From assembly GCA_964350815.1 (NCBI GenBank), contig CAYGKW010000001.1:92120-156119 (forward strand): DNA of 64,000 nt, in the 5' to 3' direction. The DNA comes from an uncultured Rhizobiaceae bacterium. GTDB lineage: Bacteria; Pseudomonadota; Alphaproteobacteria; UBA7879; VGCX01. This document shows positions 30,654 to 62,594 of this stretch, in pieces. The first letter of the stretch is position 1. The number at the start of each line of letters is the position of its first letter. Below the pieces are notes generated by a model. It worked only from the letters and a program-made list of their open reading frames with translations, was not told the origin of the DNA and searched no databases. The position numbers were made by a program, and so were the translations under genes.

Positions 30654-31250
30654 ATGTCTAAAAAATACCTATTGTTATTATCTTTATGTGTGGGAATTTC
30701 CACTGTGCCATTTGCTGCAAAAGCAAACTTTGGGAAAAAACTTGAAGCAATTAAGAACAGCAAAGATCCTACTGTTAATAAGTTGTCAGAAATATATACA
30801 GAAATTGATAATGCCTATCAAAACTTGGATGACAGTAAAATGACGGCAGAACAAATTGGCTTACAACTGTCAACAAAAGCCGCAAAAGCCGCTGCTGTCG
30901 CCAGAGAAATTGCAGAGGCCGATGGGAGCACGGGTGTAAAAGAAGAATTAGACCGTGTCACAGAACATACAAAATTTATCAGTTGTTATGCCTTAAATAA
31001 CAGGGAATATAAAAACCTTATGGAGGCCCTAAACAGCAGCAATGATGTTGGGATACAGGCCATGCTTGGAAAAACTGTGATGTGTCGAAAGATTGCAGGA
31101 ATCGCACGTGTAAAAGATGTGAATGATACAAACTTAATTCTTGAAAATATTGCCGGAACAACACCTGATTCACAAGAATGGGGAAGTGCCCTTGCAGTCG
31201 GGACATATATCATTTTTGATTCAGGAAACAAAACACCTGTAAGCGTTTAA
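30654..31250 (+). CDS. Hypothetical secreted protein (198 aa)
   Basis: Signal peptide MSKKYLLLLSLCVGISTVPFAAKA. Ala/Lys-rich helical region. No known domain. Confidence 0.45.
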   Translation: MSKKYLLLLSLCVGISTVPFAAKANFGKKLEAIKNSKDPTVNKLSEIYTEIDNAYQNLDDSKMTAEQIGLQLSTKAAKAAAVAREIAEADGSTGVKEELDRVTEHTKFISCYALNNREYKNLMEALNSSNDVGIQAMLGKTVMCRKIAGIARVKDVNDTNLILENIAGTTPDSQEWGSALAVGTYIIFDSGNKTPVSV

Positions 31251-31289
31251 ATTATAGTAAATATTAATTTTACTTACTACAATAGGATT

Positions 31290-31530
31290 GTTTCGCGATG
31301 AGCTTTATGGAAGGTAAATCCACTCACACCGTCGTACCCCACCCTCTCTGGCGTCATTACCTGGCTTGACCAGGTAATCCAGGAAAGCATGTTAATGGCA
31401 AACGATGCCCTTTCTGATGAACTCGGCCCTGGATCCCACGGTCAAGCCGTGGGATGACGGCGTAAATAAAATCAATATTTACTATACTATAACTTCTAAG
31501 CTGCAGATGTTTTTTCTGCAGCTTTTTTAT
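31290..31530 (+). ncRNA. Candidate structured small RNA of unknown family, ending in an intrinsic terminator
   Basis: A local rise in GC with no ORF of 60 aa or more on either strand. Perfect helices attacctgg/ccaggtaat and cccacgg/ccgtggg. The terminator gctgcaga–loop–tctgcagc plus a T run lies at about 31497..31530. The gene on the far side, ihfB, is on the opposite strand, so a riboswitch is not a natural reading. Confidence 0.3.
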
Positions 31531-31559
31531 AAATCAATAAAATTGAATAAATAAAAAAA

Positions 31560-31835
31560 CTAGTTTAATTGTTTGATTAAAAGTTTTCCTGCCCGGAAAA
31601 AAGGAATGTGCCGTTCGTCAATTTTGATTGCTTTTCCACTGCGCGGATCACAACCAATTCTTTCGTCTCTGTGCTTTACAAAGAAAGATCCAAATCCACG
31701 CAATTCAACGCGGTCGCCATTTTCCAATGCTTTTGTAATTTCTTCAAAAACAGTGACAATCATCTGTTCAACTTCCCGCTTGCTTTTATCAGGAAATTTC
31801 TGACTTAGCCGCTCAACTAATTCAGATCTTGTCAT
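31560..31835 (-). CDS. ihfB: Integration host factor subunit beta
   Basis: MTRSELVERLSQKFP...RVELRGFGSFFVKHRDERIGCDPRSGKAIKIDERHIPFFRAGKLL is collinear with E. coli IhfB. Confidence 0.85.
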   Translation of the reverse strand: MTRSELVERLSQKFPDKSKREVEQMIVTVFEEITKALENGDRVELRGFGSFFVKHRDERIGCDPRSGKAIKIDERHIPFFRAGKLLIKQLN

Positions 31836-32049: not shown

Positions 32050-33327
32050 TTAAAAATCATCAAATGGCCAGCCGCCTGGTGCGGTTGGGCCGGATGGCTG
32101 ACGTTGGGGCTGAGGTTGACGCTGTTGCTGCCCACCCCTTGCACCTTGTTGTGCAGGATTTTGTTGTTGACCTTGTGGCAAAGCCCTTTGCTGCTGGCCC
32201 CCTCCACTTTCTTGTTGAAAACCTAGTAAGCGCTTGATTTCATTTTGCATTATGGGATCTTGAACCAATTCCTGCATAAGATCTGGAAATGATAAACGCC
32301 CCCAATTTGCAGCCCTTTTAATCAAATGTGGGGCTGGGCTATGGGGATCCAACTCTTCCAGAAACTCTGCTGACTCTCTAATAATTTGATAGGCATGGGC
32401 ACGGCTTCGAATAACACTTGTTATATCTATGTTTTTGCCATCAACACCTAAGTCAGCCCCACCTTTGTTCTTTTTTTCGCCAGTTTCTTTAAGTTTTTCA
32501 GAATCTACCCCCCCCTCAGATGCAGGGTTTTCTTCAAAATCAGGTGCCTCTTGATCCATATCAGCACCACGGTAAGATAAAATTTGTTTACAAAACCTAC
32601 TGATATCGCCGACTTTGTTTTTCAAATTATGTAGTGATGTTGCATCTTTTTCTAATTTTTCATCCAAAAATTCTTCAAGCTTTGTTGCAATTTCAATTGT
32701 TGCATTTGCATCTTCCACCAACTCTTTAAAAAATGATGTATCCGTTTTCTCTAAGCTTTTCTCAAAAGAATCCAGGGTTTCAAGCTTACCTTTTGGCATC
32801 GACTTTGAATCATCTTTTTTGCGCCCAATGAAATGCTGTATATCAATATAGGATGCAAAAGTATGAACGTGTAATTCAGGATCATTCGGTTGGGTTGCAC
32901 GTATATTATTAATACGATCTGCCATTTTTTGATTTAACCATAGGTATGGGGCAAGGCGAAACTCTACATCATCCTCTTCCAACTTTGGATACCCATTATC
33001 CCAATACTTTTCAGACAACTTAAGCATTAATTCCAAGCCTGCCTTTAACCCTTTCAGGTTGTATAAATGCATCCAGGCTTCAACCAGCCATGCACATACT
33101 TGCAGGTCTTTGGATTTATTTTTAAGGGCTGGAACACACAAGTTTTCAACTTGTCGCCAATCTGCAGATTTCAGATCTTGAACCCAAACACCCTGAGGCA
33201 AATCATAATCTTGCCTTTGTGATTCTCTAACCTCGTCATAAATTTGACTATATTTTAAATCTTCACCTTCTGGTTTTGATTTAGATATGTCATTTAGATA
33301 GTCGTCAAGTGCCGTAATGTTTTGCAT
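32050..33327 (-). CDS. tssA: Type VI secretion protein TssA (ImpA N-terminal domain) with a Gln/Gly/Pro-rich C-terminal tail
   Basis: ImpA_N signatures SKPEGEDLKYSQIYDEVRESQ and KDLQVCAWLVEAWMHLYNLKGLKAGLELMLKLSEKYWDNGYP. The C-terminal 60 aa are low-complexity (GGGQQQRALPQGQQQNPAQQGARGGQQQRQPQPQRQP...WPFDDF). Confidence 0.75.
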   Translation of the reverse strand: MQNITALDDYLNDISKSKPEGEDLKYSQIYDEVRESQRQDYDLPQGVWVQDLKSADWRQVENLCVPALKNKSKDLQVCAWLVEAWMHLYNLKGLKAGLELMLKLSEKYWDNGYPKLEEDDVEFRLAPYLWLNQKMADRINNIRATQPNDPELHVHTFASYIDIQHFIGRKKDDSKSMPKGKLETLDSFEKSLEKTDTSFFKELVEDANATIEIATKLEEFLDEKLEKDATSLHNLKNKVGDISRFCKQILSYRGADMDQEAPDFEENPASEGGVDSEKLKETGEKKNKGGADLGVDGKNIDITSVIRSRAHAYQIIRESAEFLEELDPHSPAPHLIKRAANWGRLSFPDLMQELVQDPIMQNEIKRLLGFQQESGGGQQQRALPQGQQQNPAQQGARGGQQQRQPQPQRQPSGPTAPGGWPFDDF

Positions 33328-36300
33328 TAGGAACCTCCCTTCCTTTCAGCAATTAATGCCGGGGCTTCTATTGGGAATTCAGGAATCTTAAAGTTAGGAG
33401 ACCGAACACCGTTTGCCGTTAATGGGATAACTTTCATAAATAAGATCGCATTATCCACAGGTGAAAGCTGAGGGTTATAGCCCAAAGGAATATCAAATTT
33501 TAATAACGTATCTGAATTTGTCTGACCCCCTTCTTTTGTTGGTGTTTGGTGGATCATCATTGCACGCAATAGGGCCCAATACCCTTGATAAACATACATG
33601 GCGCGCCCAGCAACAAGTGTCAAAGCTTGTGGCCCTGAATTTTCCACAGGACGTAGAGGCGCATTGACCGCCCATTGGAATCCAAATGCTGTGTTGTTTC
33701 CAAGTTGCCATCTTATGGGCAGTTTTCCCTCTTTTTCACTAAATGAATTTTCACCCAAAATAACAGCCCAATCGATAACCTGGTCACCAAATTTCTCACG
33801 CATTTTATTTTGATTAAATTCAATTTCAACATCCATACCCGGGGCGCCATCTTTTTCTTTTGGCGCAAGGTATTTATCAAAGAACTCACGAACCCTATCC
33901 ATCTTGTTTAAGAAAACTTTTGCTTTTTTCCATGTCTTGGAATAATGCTCCATGCTTTTAATTGATTCACGGGCATTTGCATTAACCAGATCATAAAGCT
34001 TAAAGAACTCTTCTAAAATTTTATCTGATACATCTGCAGAAATAACTGGCTCTTCTGGAACACCCTTCATGAATGGGAAGGCCCCAGCCATGTGTTTGTT
34101 AAAGAAGTTCGCCATTGTATTGTATTGTTCTGCCGCCTTACCTGCTGTCACTTCTTGACAGCGGTGGTAAATACCGCGACGCAATACATTGCGACGGTGT
34201 AAGAAATAATCCCCAGAAATTTGTTCAGCATCATACTTTGTAATTTTTTCAAAACAGTTTTCAAAGGTAATTTGATTTCCCTCTTCAACCATAAAGGTTT
34301 CAAGTATTTTCAAGGTACTGTCTGCTTTGTCGTTGCCATATTCAGCAGCTGCAGTCATCAAGCGTAACCAGCGATCAAATAATTTTACCTCTTTTAAATT
34401 CATTGCAAAAACATCTGATTTCAAGAACTGCATAACAGGGGCTGCATATTCACGAACAAGATGCATTAAGCGTCTAGATTGATTGGCAATATAAGCCTGC
34501 ATTTCATGACGATCTGCCATATTATAAGCGCGGAAGATTACACGGCTTCCTTCATTCCACCAACTAAAGTTTTCATCGCCAATGGAAAAGTAATCACTTT
34601 CCATCAAGATTTTATCAAGCTTCTTTAAGTTGCCGTACATCTGTTCAAACAATAAGTTGCGCAAGTTTGTATATGTTTCAACACTCCCAATGTCATCCAA
34701 CTTAGAAAGCAATTTAATAAATAAAGGCCCAACCAAATTAATATTATCCACTTGTGATCTGGCGGCATCCTCTGCCTGACGACTCCACATTTCTGTGGGC
34801 TCATCATAGAAAGTTTGGGCCCGGCCAAGCATGACGTCAATATTACGCTGCAACTGTTTTAAGCCAACCACGCGTAATGTATCTTGTATGTCTGCAGGGT
34901 ATCCAGGCAACTCTTCTTTAAGAAATTCATTATAAGCCTCGATCAAGCCAATTGAATTTTGAATCATTTGCTTGTCCCAATGCAATAATTCACCTTTTGG
35001 CATTTCTGCGATGAAAGCTTCCCCTTTTACTTGGGCCATAAAGGGCTTGTTTAAGAAAAGGCCCAAACCTTTTTCTAAAGTAACCAACCCGGGGGATGGT
35101 TTTAAACGTTTGGTTTGCCCCGACGTTGTAAAGAAATACCCTGTAACCGGAGACCCGTAGCTTTTTAAATAACGTGTGGCTTTTTCATAAACTTTTTCTG
35201 ATACAACAGCCAAACGTTTAACAACATTTTTATTAAAGGTTTTGGCTTTTTGTACTTTTTGAATGGTTTCATGATATTTTGAACCCGGGTCAAATTCTGG
35301 TTTTGTAAGCCAATTTCCACTTGCCCCTGAAATAAAGTTGACCAGCTGTTTAATTTCAATAAGGGTTTTTCTGAAACTTTGGATATCAGGAATACCACTT
35401 CCATCAACATCATCCAAAGTTTCTTGTAATTGGGAAGCCAAAGCATAAATATATTTAGGGTCTAAAATGCGTTCCAAGAAATTATTATAAAGTTCATACA
35501 ATCTTTTTTCTGCGTATAAACGATAGTTTCCAACATTAAATGGCTTGTAATGTGCCTCACCTATGACACGGGTTTTTAAACTTGATCTATCTTTTAAGAA
35601 TGCTTCGGGGAAAGAAAAATTAAACAAGTATTTTGCAACTTTTTGCAAGGCTTCTGGGTCTTTAGAGTTCGTCAAATTATTATATAAAATTGACCGATCT
35701 TCCAACATTAAAATGGCATCCACAAATCCTTCTAGCGCCAGAAATTCTGGAGTTGATGTAGGATCAAGAACCATACGTTGTTTCCCAGGCAATTCAGGAA
35801 TTTTTGGAAGTTCCGTCCGCATAATTTTTTCTGCTTTCGCATTGAAAGACATAAACATCGGCCGGGCAATAATTAGGTTATAGGTATCGTAAACTTCCTG
35901 ATCAATTTTTGCATTTAATGTACTGAACCACGAAGCTGGTAAAAATATGCTATTAATGCGATATTGTGATGCCTTGGAAACCAAATCCAAAACACTTTGT
36001 GCCCGCTTTTCAAACAAAAAGCTTCCTATTTGGTTTTCAGAAATCTGGTGCCCCCCACGCAGCTGAAGATCATGCAAAATTTTCATAAAGGCAGGCTGAA
36101 CTTTTGAAACATTTTTACGAATACTATTTTGGCCAAAATACAACCCTAAAGTACCCAAAACAACCGCGACAATAACCCCAATTTTTAGATAACTTATAGT
36201 ACGGTTTGTCGTTGTTAAGAACCTTTTGATTGGTGTTGCAATGCCTTCTTCCTCAAAAATTTTCTTTGCAAAAAGGTCTTTTAAGAACAATAATTTTATT

Positions 36301-37505
36301 TTACGTTTCCACGGAGATTCATCCGGAATATCATCCCCAAACTGAACATCGGAAACAGGCTCCATGTTTGTATTTCCCGTTAAGTAAATACCCCTTAAGG
36401 CAAAGTGATCACGGTAATCATCTATTTTAAAAATGCGATCAATATATTTTTGAACCCCTGATTCCAGAGATTCAAAAGATTGCGGGAAAATCATCACATC
36501 ATCACGGTATTCTTCTGTGCGACCCCTGGAAAAAATCTGAAGAACAGATTCAAACAAATACCCATAAATTGTTTTAAAGGCCTCACTTATCCATCTTGGA
36601 TTATAATTCATATCCGTTGTGTAAGGATTTGACCACCCTAAAATTTCTTTATGTGTTTTTGGCAAAAGTTCATTGCAGTATCCTTTAAATCCTGCAATGT
36701 GATCGCATTTGGTAATCAAAACATAAATTGGTAATTTAATCCCCAAATACTTTTCTGTTTTCACAAGCTGGTCAGATAACGCATCAGCCTTTTGACGCAA
36801 TTCTTCATCTGTAAGTTTGTATTTACCCAAAAAATAATTGGCAGGAACCGTCAAAATTAAACCATCCAAAGGACGCTTCCCCCTGATTTTTGACAGGTTT
36901 TTTAAAAGTGTTATCCAATCAGAACCCTTTGAAGCCTTAGGGTCTGAAAAAAGACAGTGCCCAGCAGGATCAATAACGATACCCTTTTCATAAAACCACC
37001 AATTAACAGTTGGGTTTTTTTCAGGAAACCCAAACTTTGGACTGTCAATTGGATGTGGAATTCCCAAATTTTTCAAAACTGTGGATTTGCCAGAAGCCCC
37101 ATCGCCGACCATCATGTACCATGGAACTTTGTAAACATAATCTGTTCCGCCGATGCGTTCTTTTAAACATTTCCTTACAGCTTCAAAAGAATTTTTAATA
37201 GCGCCATCAGGCTGAAAACCTAAAGCTTCTATAATTTTCTTTAGAAAATCTAAAACTTTTGGGAATTTTTCTTTTAGATAGGCCTTGCCTTTATCTAACC
37301 CCCCACCCTTTGTTTCTTCTTTAGTCGTGAAATATTTTTTGTAAAATTCCGTTTCTTTGAAATTAAATTTTCGACGCCCCTTCATGCCTGTACCAGCAAA
37401 AAAAGCGACAACAACAAATATCGCAAGACCTAACAAAAGGACAAACAAAAGAAGTTGGGGTAGATTATTTGTTAGCTGTCCCCCTGTCATTGCTTTTGCA
37501 CCCAA
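33327..37505 (-). CDS. tssM: Type VI secretion membrane-complex protein TssM (IcmF family), 1392 aa
   Basis: N-terminal TM helices. Walker A MMVGDGASGKSTVLKNLG and D-box DGLILTV. Long IcmF-like periplasmic C-terminal domain. Its start overlaps the end of tssL by 19 nt. Confidence 0.9.
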   Translation of the reverse strand: MGAKAMTGGQLTNNLPQLLLFVLLLGLAIFVVVAFFAGTGMKGRRKFNFKETEFYKKYFTTKEETKGGGLDKGKAYLKEKFPKVLDFLKKIIEALGFQPDGAIKNSFEAVRKCLKERIGGTDYVYKVPWYMMVGDGASGKSTVLKNLGIPHPIDSPKFGFPEKNPTVNWWFYEKGIVIDPAGHCLFSDPKASKGSDWITLLKNLSKIRGKRPLDGLILTVPANYFLGKYKLTDEELRQKADALSDQLVKTEKYLGIKLPIYVLITKCDHIAGFKGYCNELLPKTHKEILGWSNPYTTDMNYNPRWISEAFKTIYGYLFESVLQIFSRGRTEEYRDDVMIFPQSFESLESGVQKYIDRIFKIDDYRDHFALRGIYLTGNTNMEPVSDVQFGDDIPDESPWKRKIKLLFLKDLFAKKIFEEEGIATPIKRFLTTTNRTISYLKIGVIVAVVLGTLGLYFGQNSIRKNVSKVQPAFMKILHDLQLRGGHQISENQIGSFLFEKRAQSVLDLVSKASQYRINSIFLPASWFSTLNAKIDQEVYDTYNLIIARPMFMSFNAKAEKIMRTELPKIPELPGKQRMVLDPTSTPEFLALEGFVDAILMLEDRSILYNNLTNSKDPEALQKVAKYLFNFSFPEAFLKDRSSLKTRVIGEAHYKPFNVGNYRLYAEKRLYELYNNFLERILDPKYIYALASQLQETLDDVDGSGIPDIQSFRKTLIEIKQLVNFISGASGNWLTKPEFDPGSKYHETIQKVQKAKTFNKNVVKRLAVVSEKVYEKATRYLKSYGSPVTGYFFTTSGQTKRLKPSPGLVTLEKGLGLFLNKPFMAQVKGEAFIAEMPKGELLHWDKQMIQNSIGLIEAYNEFLKEELPGYPADIQDTLRVVGLKQLQRNIDVMLGRAQTFYDEPTEMWSRQAEDAARSQVDNINLVGPLFIKLLSKLDDIGSVETYTNLRNLLFEQMYGNLKKLDKILMESDYFSIGDENFSWWNEGSRVIFRAYNMADRHEMQAYIANQSRRLMHLVREYAAPVMQFLKSDVFAMNLKEVKLFDRWLRLMTAAAEYGNDKADSTLKILETFMVEEGNQITFENCFEKITKYDAEQISGDYFLHRRNVLRRGIYHRCQEVTAGKAAEQYNTMANFFNKHMAGAFPFMKGVPEEPVISADVSDKILEEFFKLYDLVNANARESIKSMEHYSKTWKKAKVFLNKMDRVREFFDKYLAPKEKDGAPGMDVEIEFNQNKMREKFGDQVIDWAVILGENSFSEKEGKLPIRWQLGNNTAFGFQWAVNAPLRPVENSGPQALTLVAGRAMYVYQGYWALLRAMMIHQTPTKEGGQTNSDTLLKFDIPLGYNPQLSPVDNAILFMKVIPLTANGVRSPNFKIPEFPIEAPALIAERKGGS

Positions 37506-38251
37506 TAATTAACTTGATCTACTATATTTTCCATATCATTTGTTTCAGTCACCCAGACAATTTGCGATAAAATGATGAAGGCAACGACAACACCGCACAA
37601 ACCCATAACCCAGTTACGTGTCATTGGCATTTTCATTGCATCTCGCTGGTCTATTGTATGCTGATAAGCCTGGGGAAACAATTCAGAAACACCATCCAAG
37701 ACAGCAGGTGAATCTTGCATTAACCTTGAAAAAAGTTGATCGCGATATTTTTTCAAAGCCCCTTTACTATCAACATCACGATAGCGTCCTTTAAACCCCA
37801 GGCCAAGTGCCAACAAATACATAACACCAATATCCGTATTTGCTGAATCTCGAACACCTAAAAATTGGTCTAAATTTTTAAACAACTTTTCCCCTGCCAC
37901 CTGGCTGTTGAATATTTTTGATTCCAGAAGGTTATTTTCCCATTCATCTTGACCAACCCATTTTAGGTTAATAAAAATTTCATCTGCCAGCCCCACCATG
38001 ATATATTGTGCTTCACGATAATAACGTGCTGCATAACCACCACCATGCTTTTCAATATATTGGTACTGTGAATCCAACAGATTATACAATCGGTCATGGA
38101 TTTTTTTAGAAAGGGACTCCCCTTCTTTTCCATCTTCACTTGTTGACAAAAATTCTCCAGACAGCGCTGACGCTTTAAGCATCACAACTTCTTCATAAAA
38201 AGTCTTAAAGTCTTTTAATATAAGTGACTTTATAAGCTTTTCATGACGCAT
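37487..38251 (-). CDS. tssL: Type VI secretion protein TssL (DotU/IcmH family), no OmpA-like peptidoglycan-binding extension
   Basis: DotU core motif YLLALGLGFKGRYRD. A single C-terminal TM helix (VMGLCGVVVAFIILSQIVWV). 254 aa. Confidence 0.8.
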   Translation of the reverse strand: MRHEKLIKSLILKDFKTFYEEVVMLKASALSGEFLSTSEDGKEGESLSKKIHDRLYNLLDSQYQYIEKHGGGYAARYYREAQYIMVGLADEIFINLKWVGQDEWENNLLESKIFNSQVAGEKLFKNLDQFLGVRDSANTDIGVMYLLALGLGFKGRYRDVDSKGALKKYRDQLFSRLMQDSPAVLDGVSELFPQAYQHTIDQRDAMKMPMTRNWVMGLCGVVVAFIILSQIVWVTETNDMENIVDQVNYWVQKQ

Positions 38252-38272
38252 AAAAATTCCTCCTAAAAACCT

Positions 38273-39607
38273 TTACCCAGCTGTATACAAAACAATTTCA
38301 GCCGGACGCGTATTTTGCGAGTCAGACAGATTGAATATTTGAAGTTTCTCACCTGTCTTGACATACTCTGAATCCATTTTTACTTTGATCAGCAATCGTC
38401 CTTGACTCATAGTCAGGCCCATTTCAGAAACTTGCTCAACAATTTCACGTGGGGCGCCCAATATCCTTTTCTCTCTGGCACTTTCTGCAACAGATTCAGA
38501 GGCAATTACAGCCTCACGCATCCAATCTGATGCCATTTTTGGAGAAATGTCTGAGCTGATCTTCAAACCCAAAACAAGGTAACCTGCATGCATCCATTCG
38601 GACTGAATCTTTTTTTCAAAAATTCTGTCAGATAATGTGAATGGAATAGAAACTGAGGCACTTTGGACCAAATCTAACATACGATTCACAAATGAAATAA
38701 CAGGGGTGAAAGTCGCCCTTAAATCATTGTGATTGTATGGATCAAATATCGGGGGCATATGCCCTTTACTTAAAGAACAAAAAACACCTGCTGCAATAGA
38801 TAATTCCCGGTACGCCATAAAGGGGTGTGATGTTTCTGCAAATAAAAGAGCCTCAAGCCCCAACAAGCGACTTACAATTATATCATAAGTTTTTTTGTAC
38901 TGGTCCATGATAGGCGCTGTATCTTGGGTTACAGGGGCCTGTAGTCGTTCAGATAAATGGGACACCCTTTTTCTTAGGGCTTTAACCACATTACTTAATA
39001 ATTTTCCAATTGGTCCATCCCTGCGTATCGTTGTAAAGGGGGGAATAAAATCTTCCCTAACAAAAGCATCATCTTTATAGCGCACCCGCATCAAAGGAAA
39101 ACTTGAATATCTTGATGAAATATCATCACCTACAAACAATGAAACTTTTAAAGACAACCGAGGAATTGGAATTGGGGCTTCCCCCGTATTTTCATCCGGA
39201 ATTGTCTTGCCTTCAACTGAATCATAGCGCGGAAAATCGCCTTCACTGTTGGCAGCATCTTCATGACGCTTAACAACAGCCAAATGAATCATCATCGGCT
39301 TTTCTTGAAGCTGATCTTTAAATTCATTAATATCCAGTTCAATTTTCTTTTGTTCGTTAATTTCTTTTTTAACAATACTGCCATCTGGCATAACAGCCAG
39401 TAACTCTTGAATACGAATAATACCACTTGTAAAAGCAGCCTCATCCAATTGCATATAACGCACACCCCAATAAAAAGGTGTCGACATGCTAAGGTAACAA
39501 AGGGACAATTGTTGATATTCCAACCGCATTTGTTGGTAATGCTGTGGATATAACAACATCCCTTCATGCCATTGAACGGGATCGACTATCTTGAAAGTTT
39601 TTTCCAT
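38273..39607 (-). CDS. tssK: Type VI secretion baseplate protein TssK (ImpJ/VasE)
   Basis: N-terminal signature VQWHEGMLLYPQHYQQ (W-x-E-G-M-x-L-x-P-Q-H-F/Y-Q-Q). About 440 aa, the typical TssK length. Confidence 0.85.
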   Translation of the reverse strand: MEKTFKIVDPVQWHEGMLLYPQHYQQMRLEYQQLSLCYLSMSTPFYWGVRYMQLDEAAFTSGIIRIQELLAVMPDGSIVKKEINEQKKIELDINEFKDQLQEKPMMIHLAVVKRHEDAANSEGDFPRYDSVEGKTIPDENTGEAPIPIPRLSLKVSLFVGDDISSRYSSFPLMRVRYKDDAFVREDFIPPFTTIRRDGPIGKLLSNVVKALRKRVSHLSERLQAPVTQDTAPIMDQYKKTYDIIVSRLLGLEALLFAETSHPFMAYRELSIAAGVFCSLSKGHMPPIFDPYNHNDLRATFTPVISFVNRMLDLVQSASVSIPFTLSDRIFEKKIQSEWMHAGYLVLGLKISSDISPKMASDWMREAVIASESVAESAREKRILGAPREIVEQVSEMGLTMSQGRLLIKVKMDSEYVKTGEKLQIFNLSDSQNTRPAEIVLYTAG

Positions 39608-39768: not shown

Positions 39769-39845
39769 TGGTAGCGAGGGAGGGACTCGAACCCCCGACA
39801 CGCGGATTATGATTCCGCTGCTCTAACCAGCTGAGCTACCCCGCC
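39769..39845 (-). tRNA. tRNA-Met (CAU anticodon); could be the lysidine-modified tRNA-Ile2
   Basis: Minus-strand sequence GGCGGGGTAGCTCAGCTGGTTAGAGCAGCGGAATCATAATCCGCGTGTCGGGGGTTCGAGTCCCTCCCTCGCTACCA folds as a cloverleaf. The anticodon loop is AUCAUAA, TΨC is GTTCGAGTC, and 3' CCA is encoded. No initiator-type 3×G-C anticodon stem. Confidence 0.85.
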
Positions 39846-44109: not shown

Positions 44110-44183
44110 TGGAGCGGGTGATGGGAATCGAACCCACACTACCAGCTTGGAAGGCTGGGGCTCTACCGTTGAGCTACACCCGC
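44110..44183 (-). tRNA. tRNA-Gly (UCC)
   Basis: GCGGGTGTAGCTCAACGGTAGAGCCCCAGCCTTCCAAGCTGGTAGTGTGGGTTCGATTCCCATCACCCGCTCCA. Anticodon loop CUUCCAA. Acceptor GCGGGTG/CACCCGC. CCA encoded. Confidence 0.9.
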
Positions 44184-54511: not shown

Positions 54512-54598
54512 TGGTGCGGTCGAGAAGACTCGAACTTCCACGGAGTCGCCTCCACAGCGACCTCAACGCTGCGCGTCTACCAATTCCGCCACGACCGC
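54512..54598 (-). tRNA. tRNA-Leu (GAG), class II with a long variable arm
   Basis: GCGGTCGTGGCGGAATTGGTAGACGCGCAGCGTTGAGGTCGCTGTGGAGGCGACTCCGTGGAAGTTCGAGTCTTCTCGACCGCACCA. Anticodon loop UUGAGGU. Acceptor GCGGTCG/CGACCGC. CCA encoded. Confidence 0.85.
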
Positions 54599-62471: not shown

Positions 62472-62594
62472 AGTGAGAGACTGAACGCACGACCCGAAAG
62501 AGGTTGCTGCGGCTGCTTTCTTCCGAACCTGACCGGGTTCACAACTGATCCGCCCATGGTCAGTCCCTCAAACAGAAATATAACATTCCCCCCA
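62472..62594 (-). ncRNA. ffs: Signal recognition particle RNA (4.5S / ffs), small bacterial type; ends approximate
   Basis: The minus strand contains CCGGUCAGGUUCGGAAGAAAGCAGCCGCAG, which matches the universally conserved SRP RNA domain IV (..CAGGUC..GGAAG.AAGCAGCC..). The flanking sequences UGAGGGACUGACC and GGUCG..UCAGUCUCUCA pair. It lies immediately upstream of dnaX, as ffs/scr does in many bacteria. Confidence 0.75.

Follow-up and report, generated by a model that had tools for sequence, protein, structure and literature searches.

Between a gene for a 198-amino-acid protein and the convergent gene ihfB, the 64,000-nucleotide (nt) stretch analyzed here (positions 92,120 to 156,119 of the forward strand of contig CAYGKW010000001.1, from assembly GCA_964350815.1 of an uncultured Rhizobiaceae bacterium; hereafter the window) contains a G+C-rich region that an initial annotation, made from the sequence alone, had put forward as a candidate small RNA (sRNA) gene with its own terminator. 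Comparative genomics makes it very probable that this region is a miniature inverted-repeat transposable element (MITE) of 230 bp with ends of the IS630 insertion sequence (IS) type (31255-31484), carrying a dimer of CGTC-tagged repetitive extragenic palindromic (REP) units and inserted in one strain, rather than a conserved sRNA gene. The window strain carries the element, with TA on either side of it, and sister strains have none at this position. It combines known kinds of sequence, an IS630-type MITE and, as its cargo, a CGTC-REP dimer resembling Rickettsia palindromic elements (RPE), and it is represented by a clean pair of filled and empty sites. The features of the locus, numbered from the first nucleotide of the window, are as follows.

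30654 to 31250, plus strand: upstream gene from the list of open reading frames (ORFs), 198 amino acids, with a signal-peptide-like N-terminus and without a Pfam family (stop codon TAA at 31248-31250)
31253 to 31254, no strand: left copy of the TA target-site duplication, from the filled versus the empty site
31255 to 31484: the element, 230 bp, which starts TAGTAAATATT and ends AATATTTACTA
31255 to 31277, plus strand: left terminal inverted repeat TAGTAAATATTAATTTTACTTAC, from an inverted-repeat search and the match to the ends of IS630-family IS
31278 to 31349, no strand: left internal segment (72 nt) with a small GGATT...AATCC hairpin and an extra CGTC at 31330-31333
31350 to 31381, plus strand: REP unit 1, with tag CGTC at 31352-31355, stem 31356-31364/31370-31378 starting AT, loop CTTGA at 31365-31369 and tail CCA at 31379-31381
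31382 to 31429, no strand: dimer spacer (48 nt) with a small GGCA/TGCC hairpin and the start of a short frame reading MAND...
31430 to 31461, minus strand: REP unit 2, inverted, with tail TGG at 31430-31432, stem 31433-31441/31447-31455, loop at 31442-31446 and tag GACG at 31456-31459
31462 to 31484, minus strand: right terminal inverted repeat, whose reverse complement is TAGTAAATATTGATTTTATTTAC, agreeing with the left repeat at 21 of 23 positions
31485 to 31486, no strand: right copy of the TA target-site duplication, from the filled versus the empty site
31498 to 31530, plus strand: intrinsic terminator of the upstream gene, pre-existing and outside the element, from a hairpin search and its retention in sister-strain contigs L007 and L009-L012
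31560 to 31835, minus strand: ihfB (integration host factor beta, PF00216), the convergent neighbor

Contigs encoding IhfB were fetched for comparison, with the IhfB of the window as the anchor. Five contigs from different samples (L007 and L009-L012) encode an identical IhfB protein and a 198-amino-acid neighbor, which is an ortholog of equal length to the upstream gene, and their DNA matches that of the window at 93-94% identity across 10 kb to either side. The gap between ihfB and the 198-amino-acid gene is 76 nt in these sister strains versus 309 nt in the window, and the alignment lacks a single clean block of 229-232 nt, with the terminator kept; the empty site consists of GTTTAAATTAT joined directly to TATAACTTTAAGCTGTAGATGTTTCTTCTGCAGCTTTTTTT, so that the terminator lies almost directly 3' of the stop codon. 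More distant relatives (L001-L004 and L013-L017), which share the gene order of type VI secretion genes, ihfB, secreted protein, DUF2659/TPR, bamB and der, also lack the block and have a terminator alone at the site (L002 is about 76% identical to the window DNA). Lack of conservation in related genomes was among the findings that the initial annotation had named as refuting it, and no block was found at the locus in any relative examined. Since relatives have a terminator here but no block, the block was inserted in the lineage of the window, and the terminator is that of the upstream gene and no part of the block.

The filled site is seen independently in Logan contigs of run ERR3534985, one covering the left junction (L141, to 31364) and the other the right junction (L008, to 31457, running from ihfB into the right terminal repeat); because both read into the element, the insertion is no assembly artifact. 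The opposite history, in which the element is ancestral and every other sampled strain has lost it by precise excision or deletion, is scarcely credible: cut-and-paste transposons can excise, and a cytosine at 31487, which is T in the empty-site strains, might be read as a difference made by excision, but loss would be needed in every other sampled lineage (the five sister-strain contigs and three more distant clades), and the empty sites have intact TA context and terminator, with no footprint.

Insertion in the lineage of the window is further specified by the ends of the block. The G+C-rich core is bracketed by 23-nt inverted repeats (31255-31277/31462-31484, 21 of 23 positions identical), missed by the initial annotation, of which none would be expected by chance even if up to 3 mismatches were allowed. 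IS630/Tc1-mariner elements insert at TA and duplicate this dinucleotide (2 bp). Insertion of the element at the first TA in the empty-site sequence AAAT-TA-TTATAAC reproduces the window exactly, save for C31487; alternative ends (starting at GTAAAT) or a 3- to 4-bp duplication would require insertions or deletions. Metagenome contigs scanned with TAGTAAATATTRATTTTAYTTAC gave three matches (L138-L140), all of them IS ends: the 23-mer of the element, with one mismatch, lies at both ends of an IS630-family IS in these contigs. In L140 an ORF with an HTH_Tnp_IS630 domain (E = 2.4e-14) comes after the repeat, and in L138 and L139 the repeat comes after the C-terminus of a DDE_3/IS630-family transposase that contains PYSPDLNPIEQQW (Pfam E = 6.4e-21; NCBIfam transpos_IS630 E = 4.5e-23). 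TA precedes two of these three IS ends. A Rickettsia endosymbiont also has an IS630 copy (L105:5100-6050) that shares the terminal TAGTAAAT with the element. As the repeat ends IS that encode HTH_Tnp_IS630 and DDE_3 domains, the 23-mer is an IS630-family terminal inverted repeat, and as there is no such transposase in the window and no ORF of more than 49 amino acids in the element, the element is non-autonomous, that is, a MITE. It contains no transposase ORF and no gene on record.

The IS ends with the 23-nt repeat TAGTAAATATTAATTTTATTTAC belong to metagenome Ga0316204 (L138:2212-2491, L139:1083-1290 and L140:63-459); all three contigs end inside the IS, so that no full copy was obtained, and in L139 the IS is reduced to a truncated 3' remnant next to an rpoD-like gene. 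The transposase C-terminus of the Rickettsia endosymbiont IS630 (L105) shares 69% identity with its counterpart in the Ga0316204 IS, and the first 8 nt of the L105 ends (TAGTAAATTAAGTTGAGG and TGGTAAATTAAGTTGAAG) are those of the window MITE.

Several observations weigh against an IS630-type MITE at this site. Duplication of TA costs one substitution (C31487 versus T), whereas a 232-nt insertion without duplication fits unchanged. No IS630-type transposase was found in the 64-kb window; the metagenome contigs L138-L140 are the sole place where the cognate IS was observed. Because its interior does not resemble the IS, the element is no simple deletion derivative. There is one copy in the 64-kb window (BLASTN, nhmmer) and no second full copy in the metagenome scan with the terminal-repeat pattern, and TAGTAAA/TTTACTA termini occur near none of the 128 other CGTC units fetched.

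A scan of viral contigs with the left-end pattern gave no match, and exact look-up of eight reading frames within the element, either short ORFs or partial frames, yielded no record of any. The left internal segment (31278-31349) matches nothing by BLAST across the 0.98 Mb of loci fetched and is absent from the empty-site strains. It contains a third CGTC (31330-31333), to the left of REP unit 1, followed by GT-ACCCCACCC-TCTCT, and the stretch from 31330 to 31349 partly repeats the start of unit 1 (CCGTCGTACC versus GCGTCATTACC); it may be a decayed third unit. Logan contigs are assembled with k = 31 (bioRxiv 10.1101/2024.07.30.605881), and the ends of L141 and L008 (31364 and 31457) each lie k-1 = 30 nt into the segment 31335-31486, of which the right edge is the flanking TA, leaving 31365-31456 unassembled. 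These contig ends hint at a second, partly shared copy in sample ERR3534985, or at local variants at the REP dimer.

All the sequence features named in the initial annotation were found. G+C content is 52% in 31278-31461 compared to 37.6% in the whole window, and the enrichment first reported is borne out by 100-nt windows at 31300-31449 (51-54%, versus 27-43% in the flanks). The perfect helices that had been described were likewise confirmed, as two 9-bp hairpins: ATTACCTGG-CTTGA-CCAGGTAAT at 31356-31378 (arms 31356-31364/31370-31378) and ATCCCACGG-TCAAG-CCGTGGGAT at 31433-31455 (arms 31433-31441/31447-31455), both enclosed by an imperfect 32-nt inverted repeat (31352-31383/31428-31459). Folding is stronger than that of shuffled sequences on the plus strand of the core (z = -4.1), on the minus strand (z = -5.6) and from stop codon to terminator (z = -6.4). 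The earlier statement that no ORF of 60 amino acids or more touches the region holds (the longest are 49 amino acids on the plus strand and 37 on the minus strand), and the short frame that it had singled out, M(LM)ANDALSDELGPGSHGQAVG followed by a stop, is indeed present at 31389-31457; this frame is a chance reading through the dimer spacer.

According to Di Nocera, De Gregorio & Rocco (2013, PMC3733652), CGTC-tagged REPs consist of an unpaired CGTC or TGTC tag, an 8- to 9-bp stem starting AT, a 4- to 5-nt loop and a CCA tail, mostly form head-to-head dimers with spacers of 20-100 bp, and predominate in Alphaproteobacteria, including Rickettsia and Wolbachia. Both window units have every feature given there, in tag, stem, loop, tail, head-to-head orientation and spacer. 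The window dimer has its tags outside and is a heterodimer, the stems of the two units being different.

Because all relatives lack the block, a covariation test on orthologs was impossible, and the repeat family was used instead. A motif derived from the window and the WsnRNA46 consensus (GGYGTCAT-N9-TGAC-N6-ATCCAGRAA), scanned in one genome per species, matched at least 120 stretches, and among the matches listed nearly all are in Rickettsia, Wolbachia and unclassified Rickettsiales metagenome-assembled genomes (MAGs), often many per genome (more than 18 loci in the Rickettsia endosymbiont of Polydrusus and about 10 in that of Argas persicus). The recurring unit is (C/T)GTC-AT-[7 variable]-CTTGA-[7 complementary]-AT-CCA, usually with an inverted second unit after a spacer of 10-90 nt. 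The covariation set comprised 57 distinct units, and since the variable stem positions were left unconstrained by the search pattern, it is a fair test of structure. Pairing was found in 87.5% of stem cells, compared to 68% in column shuffles and 22-44% with slid partners; double changes occur in 6 of the 9 pairs, in 106 cells against 39 expected; and the covariation score of 0.487 (0.140 in shuffles) was equaled by none of 500 shuffles. This pattern of substitutions indicates that the CGTC hairpin is under selection across the family, at the level of DNA or RNA. Such selection on a 9-bp hairpin with constant flanks and loop explains both the high G+C content and the helices.

Among the matches listed, well-formed CGTC head-to-head dimers with the loop CTTGA also occur at L048:765-856, L077:979-1090, the L081:6791 region (minus strand), L117, L111, L121, L132 and L069, in MAGs labeled Rhodobacteraceae (L048), Eubacteriales, Planctomycetia and unclassified Pseudomonadota; the L048 dimer is the best overall match to the window core among those listed (70% over 111 nt). 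The repeat type may extend beyond Rickettsiales, or else some of the bins may be contaminated. The motif matches in L038, L068, L102 and L123 are unpaired and were set aside as chance.

Neither the rest of the 64-kb window nor about 60 kb from the loci of relatives contains another CGTC unit, which argues that the dimer arrived as cargo of the MITE and not as a local REP. A REP doublet that moved by itself in the manner of a REPIN, by means of a REP-associated tyrosine transposase (RAYT) or another single-strand transposase, with the A+T-rich inverted repeats being coincidental or part of the target, is highly improbable. It would suit a core built as a head-to-head REP dimer, which PMC3733652 reports as the proposed mobile unit of GTAG REPs, and stem covariation is as expected for recognition of a hairpin; but the inserted block measures 230 bp, including the 23-nt repeats and the 72-nt non-REP segment, rather than the 110 nt of a bare dimer, its terminal repeats match the ends of IS630-family IS with one mismatch, the rest of the window and the loci of relatives hold no further CGTC unit, and the same paper associates no transposase or RAYT with CGTC REPs.

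Known RNA families offer little to the region. The RNAs of the window that pass Rfam or ARAGORN thresholds all lie elsewhere: a signal recognition particle RNA (62473-62568, minus strand, 55.6 bits) and three tRNAs on the minus strand, tRNA-Met(CAT) at 39769-39845, tRNA-Gly(TCC) at 44110-44183 and tRNA-Leu(GAG) at 54512-54598. Transfer-messenger RNA (tmRNA), 6S RNA and RNase P have no Rfam match at E ≤ 10 in 31150-31650, and ARAGORN identifies no tmRNA, in agreement with the earlier dismissal of tmRNA and against the suggestion of a 6S-like RNA. The Rfam scan that had been recommended, run permissively on 31150-31650, did return an sRNA family as its lone notable match, WsnRNA46 (RF02625, Wolbachia sRNA 46), at 31339-31473 (model positions 1-151, 27.8 bits, E = 0.0017), but this falls below the gathering score of the family (65.3 bits).

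WsnRNA46 itself has the distribution of a repeat. In Wolbachia, copies of the motif exceed the gathering score at several loci of different genomes (L055:2578-2706, 90.6 and 65.4 bits; L027:7726-7834, 71.2 and 68.5 bits; L018:1443-1613, 67.1 bits), and at L055 and L027 both strands match. The Rfam family thus appears to model the Wolbachia version of the CGTC-REP dimer, a dispersed palindromic repeat rather than a single-locus sRNA gene, in which case the weak match in the window reflects shared repeat architecture and not orthology of sRNA genes. A genuine trans-acting sRNA gene akin to WsnRNA46, transcribed from a promoter of its own as far as the terminator at 31498-31530, is decidedly unlikely. 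The match to the model, albeit sub-threshold, is full-length, the region folds strongly, a terminator lies downstream, and WsnRNA-46 has been reported as an expressed Wolbachia sRNA (PMC12796755, PMC5105140). Nevertheless, the block is missing at the locus in sister strains and relatives, the score is far under the gathering threshold, there is no sigma-70-like promoter within or just upstream, the terminator already exists in empty-site strains, and the family itself matches repeated loci on both strands. The proposal of a discrete conserved sRNA with its own terminator is contradicted by the absence of the 230-bp block from sister strains and distant relatives, the lack of an internal promoter and the IS630 transposon ends; it is the sister-strain comparison that settles the question of sRNA versus mobile repeat. 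High G+C content, folding, a downstream terminator and a weak Rfam match can all stem from a mobile palindromic repeat, which calls for caution in sRNA prediction, and the apparent nature of WsnRNA46 as a dispersed two-strand repeat matters for the interpretation of reports on that sRNA.

The terminator described in the initial annotation exists, as an intrinsic hairpin with a T run at 31498-31530 (AAGCTGCAGA-TGTTTTT-TCTGCAGCTT, then the T run), but it is not the region's own, being found in strains that lack the region, and its loop is 7 nt, not 8. A consensus scan detected no promoter-like (sigma-70) site in or just before the element; the TTGAC of the hairpin loop has no acceptable -10 element after it. 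This lack of a promoter-like site, together with the position between stop codon and terminator, argues that the element is transcribed with the 198-amino-acid gene, probably as a structured 3' untranslated region (3'UTR) of its mRNA. The fallback interpretation offered earlier, in which the upstream gene has a long structured 3'UTR, is therefore the most likely description of the transcript, with the qualification that a mobile element has been inserted in the 3'UTR. With the insertion, the 3'UTR would grow about sixfold, from some 45 nt to some 275 nt, and become strongly folded; in the predicted fold, the ends of the element pair together and enclose both REP hairpins (minimum free energy -90.8 kcal/mol, z = -6.4). 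REP hairpins in 3'UTRs have been hypothesized to stabilize the upstream mRNA (PMC3733652), and the longer 3'UTR might alter mRNA stability here. WsnRNA-46 indicates that such repeats can give small RNAs (PMC12796755); more tentatively, the dimer in the 3'UTR could be processed into a WsnRNA46-like small RNA. A strain-polymorphic insertion in the 3'UTR of a putative secreted-protein gene is a possible source of differences in expression between strains.

The IS630-type MITE could have reached this site as follows. An IS630-family DDE transposase supplied in trans would bind the 23-nt ends, and the element would be pasted into the TA that lies 3 nt past the stop codon of the 198-amino-acid gene, upstream of the terminator, with duplication of TA. 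The moved unit is the whole 230 bp, comprising the ends, the 72-nt segment (31278-31349) and the REP dimer, and the element, having no detectable promoter, would then be co-transcribed with the mRNA of the upstream gene. More tentatively, an IS630 transposase may serve as the vehicle by which CGTC-REP dimers of the RPE/WsnRNA46 type are moved as cargo, seeding a genome otherwise devoid of such repeats; if this were true, it would provide a concrete route of spread, also between lineages, for a superfamily without a known transposase of its own. A general rule that CGTC dimers ride in IS630 MITEs is ruled out by the 128 other units without such termini and by the different ends of the Rickettsia copies, and IS630-end packaging of a CGTC dimer looks like an exception. 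The movement of this dimer as one block with IS630 ends documents one route of relocation, not a general one.

In the neighborhood of the insertion, a type VI secretion block adjoins ihfB (32050-39607, minus strand; ImpA_N, IcmF-related, DotU and VasE domains, identified by Pfam on the 94%-identical genes of L007). The host is an A+T-rich alphaproteobacterium that also possesses the Rickettsia-associated DUF2659 family.

Among known systems, WsnRNA46 resembles the window core in being a long hairpin formed from two inverted CGTC units, to whose full model (1-151) the window aligns. Unlike WsnRNA46, the window sequence is not from Wolbachia, and its stems, spacer and flanks are different.

REPIN/RAYT systems (GTAG doublets with IS200/IS605-like tyrosine transposases) are similar in possessing an inverted hairpin doublet that can fold as separate hairpins or as one long hairpin. 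The tag of the window units, however, is CGTC instead of GTAG, no RAYT is known for the superfamily, and the ends of the window element point to a DDE transposase.

Among RPE, the copies of about 173 bp in the Polydrusus endosymbiont have the same dimer core as the window, GGTGTCAT-ACCGTGG-CTTGA-CCACGGT-ATCCAG ... ATGACA, but have their own 18-nt ends (GGCGTTGTTGCGTGGATC and GATCCATGCAACAATGCC), unrelated to the IS630-type ends of the window element, and no consistent TA flanks. The genome of the Rickettsia endosymbiont of Polydrusus tereticollis (NZ_OZ032142.1; L021-L126) contains at least 21 copies of this RPE-type element, two of which (L072 and L110) have a 9-nt direct repeat in their flanks (ACGCGGGAA and CTGCGGGAA, respectively); these repeats suggest that the element either inserted into a different palindromic repeat or duplicated 9 bp of its target.

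Within the CGTC superfamily, for which PMC3733652 equates CGTC-1 and CGTC-4 of R. conorii with RPE-6 and RPE-4, respectively, and CGTC-1 of Neisseria with dRS3, and gives 9-bp stems and 5-nt loops for the CGTC-3 and CGTC-4 families, the window units belong with CGTC-3 or CGTC-4. As is typical for these repeats, they are intergenic, downstream of a coding region and between convergent genes. They differ in number, being two units in 64 kb where tens to thousands of copies are usual for a REP family, and in packaging, the window dimer being enclosed by IS630-type terminal repeats and TA whereas CGTC REPs have been described without a transposase.

The enclosing element has its counterpart in MITEs derived from IS630/Tc1-mariner elements, such as mISOt2a and mISOt2b of Orientia tsutsugamushi, whose terminal repeats are also those of ISOt2 (PMC2575882). 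Like them, it is small (230 bp), lacks a transposase, has IS630-family terminal repeats and TA flanks, and is polymorphic among strains in its presence or absence; in contrast to them, its interior is unrelated to the IS and is largely a REP dimer.

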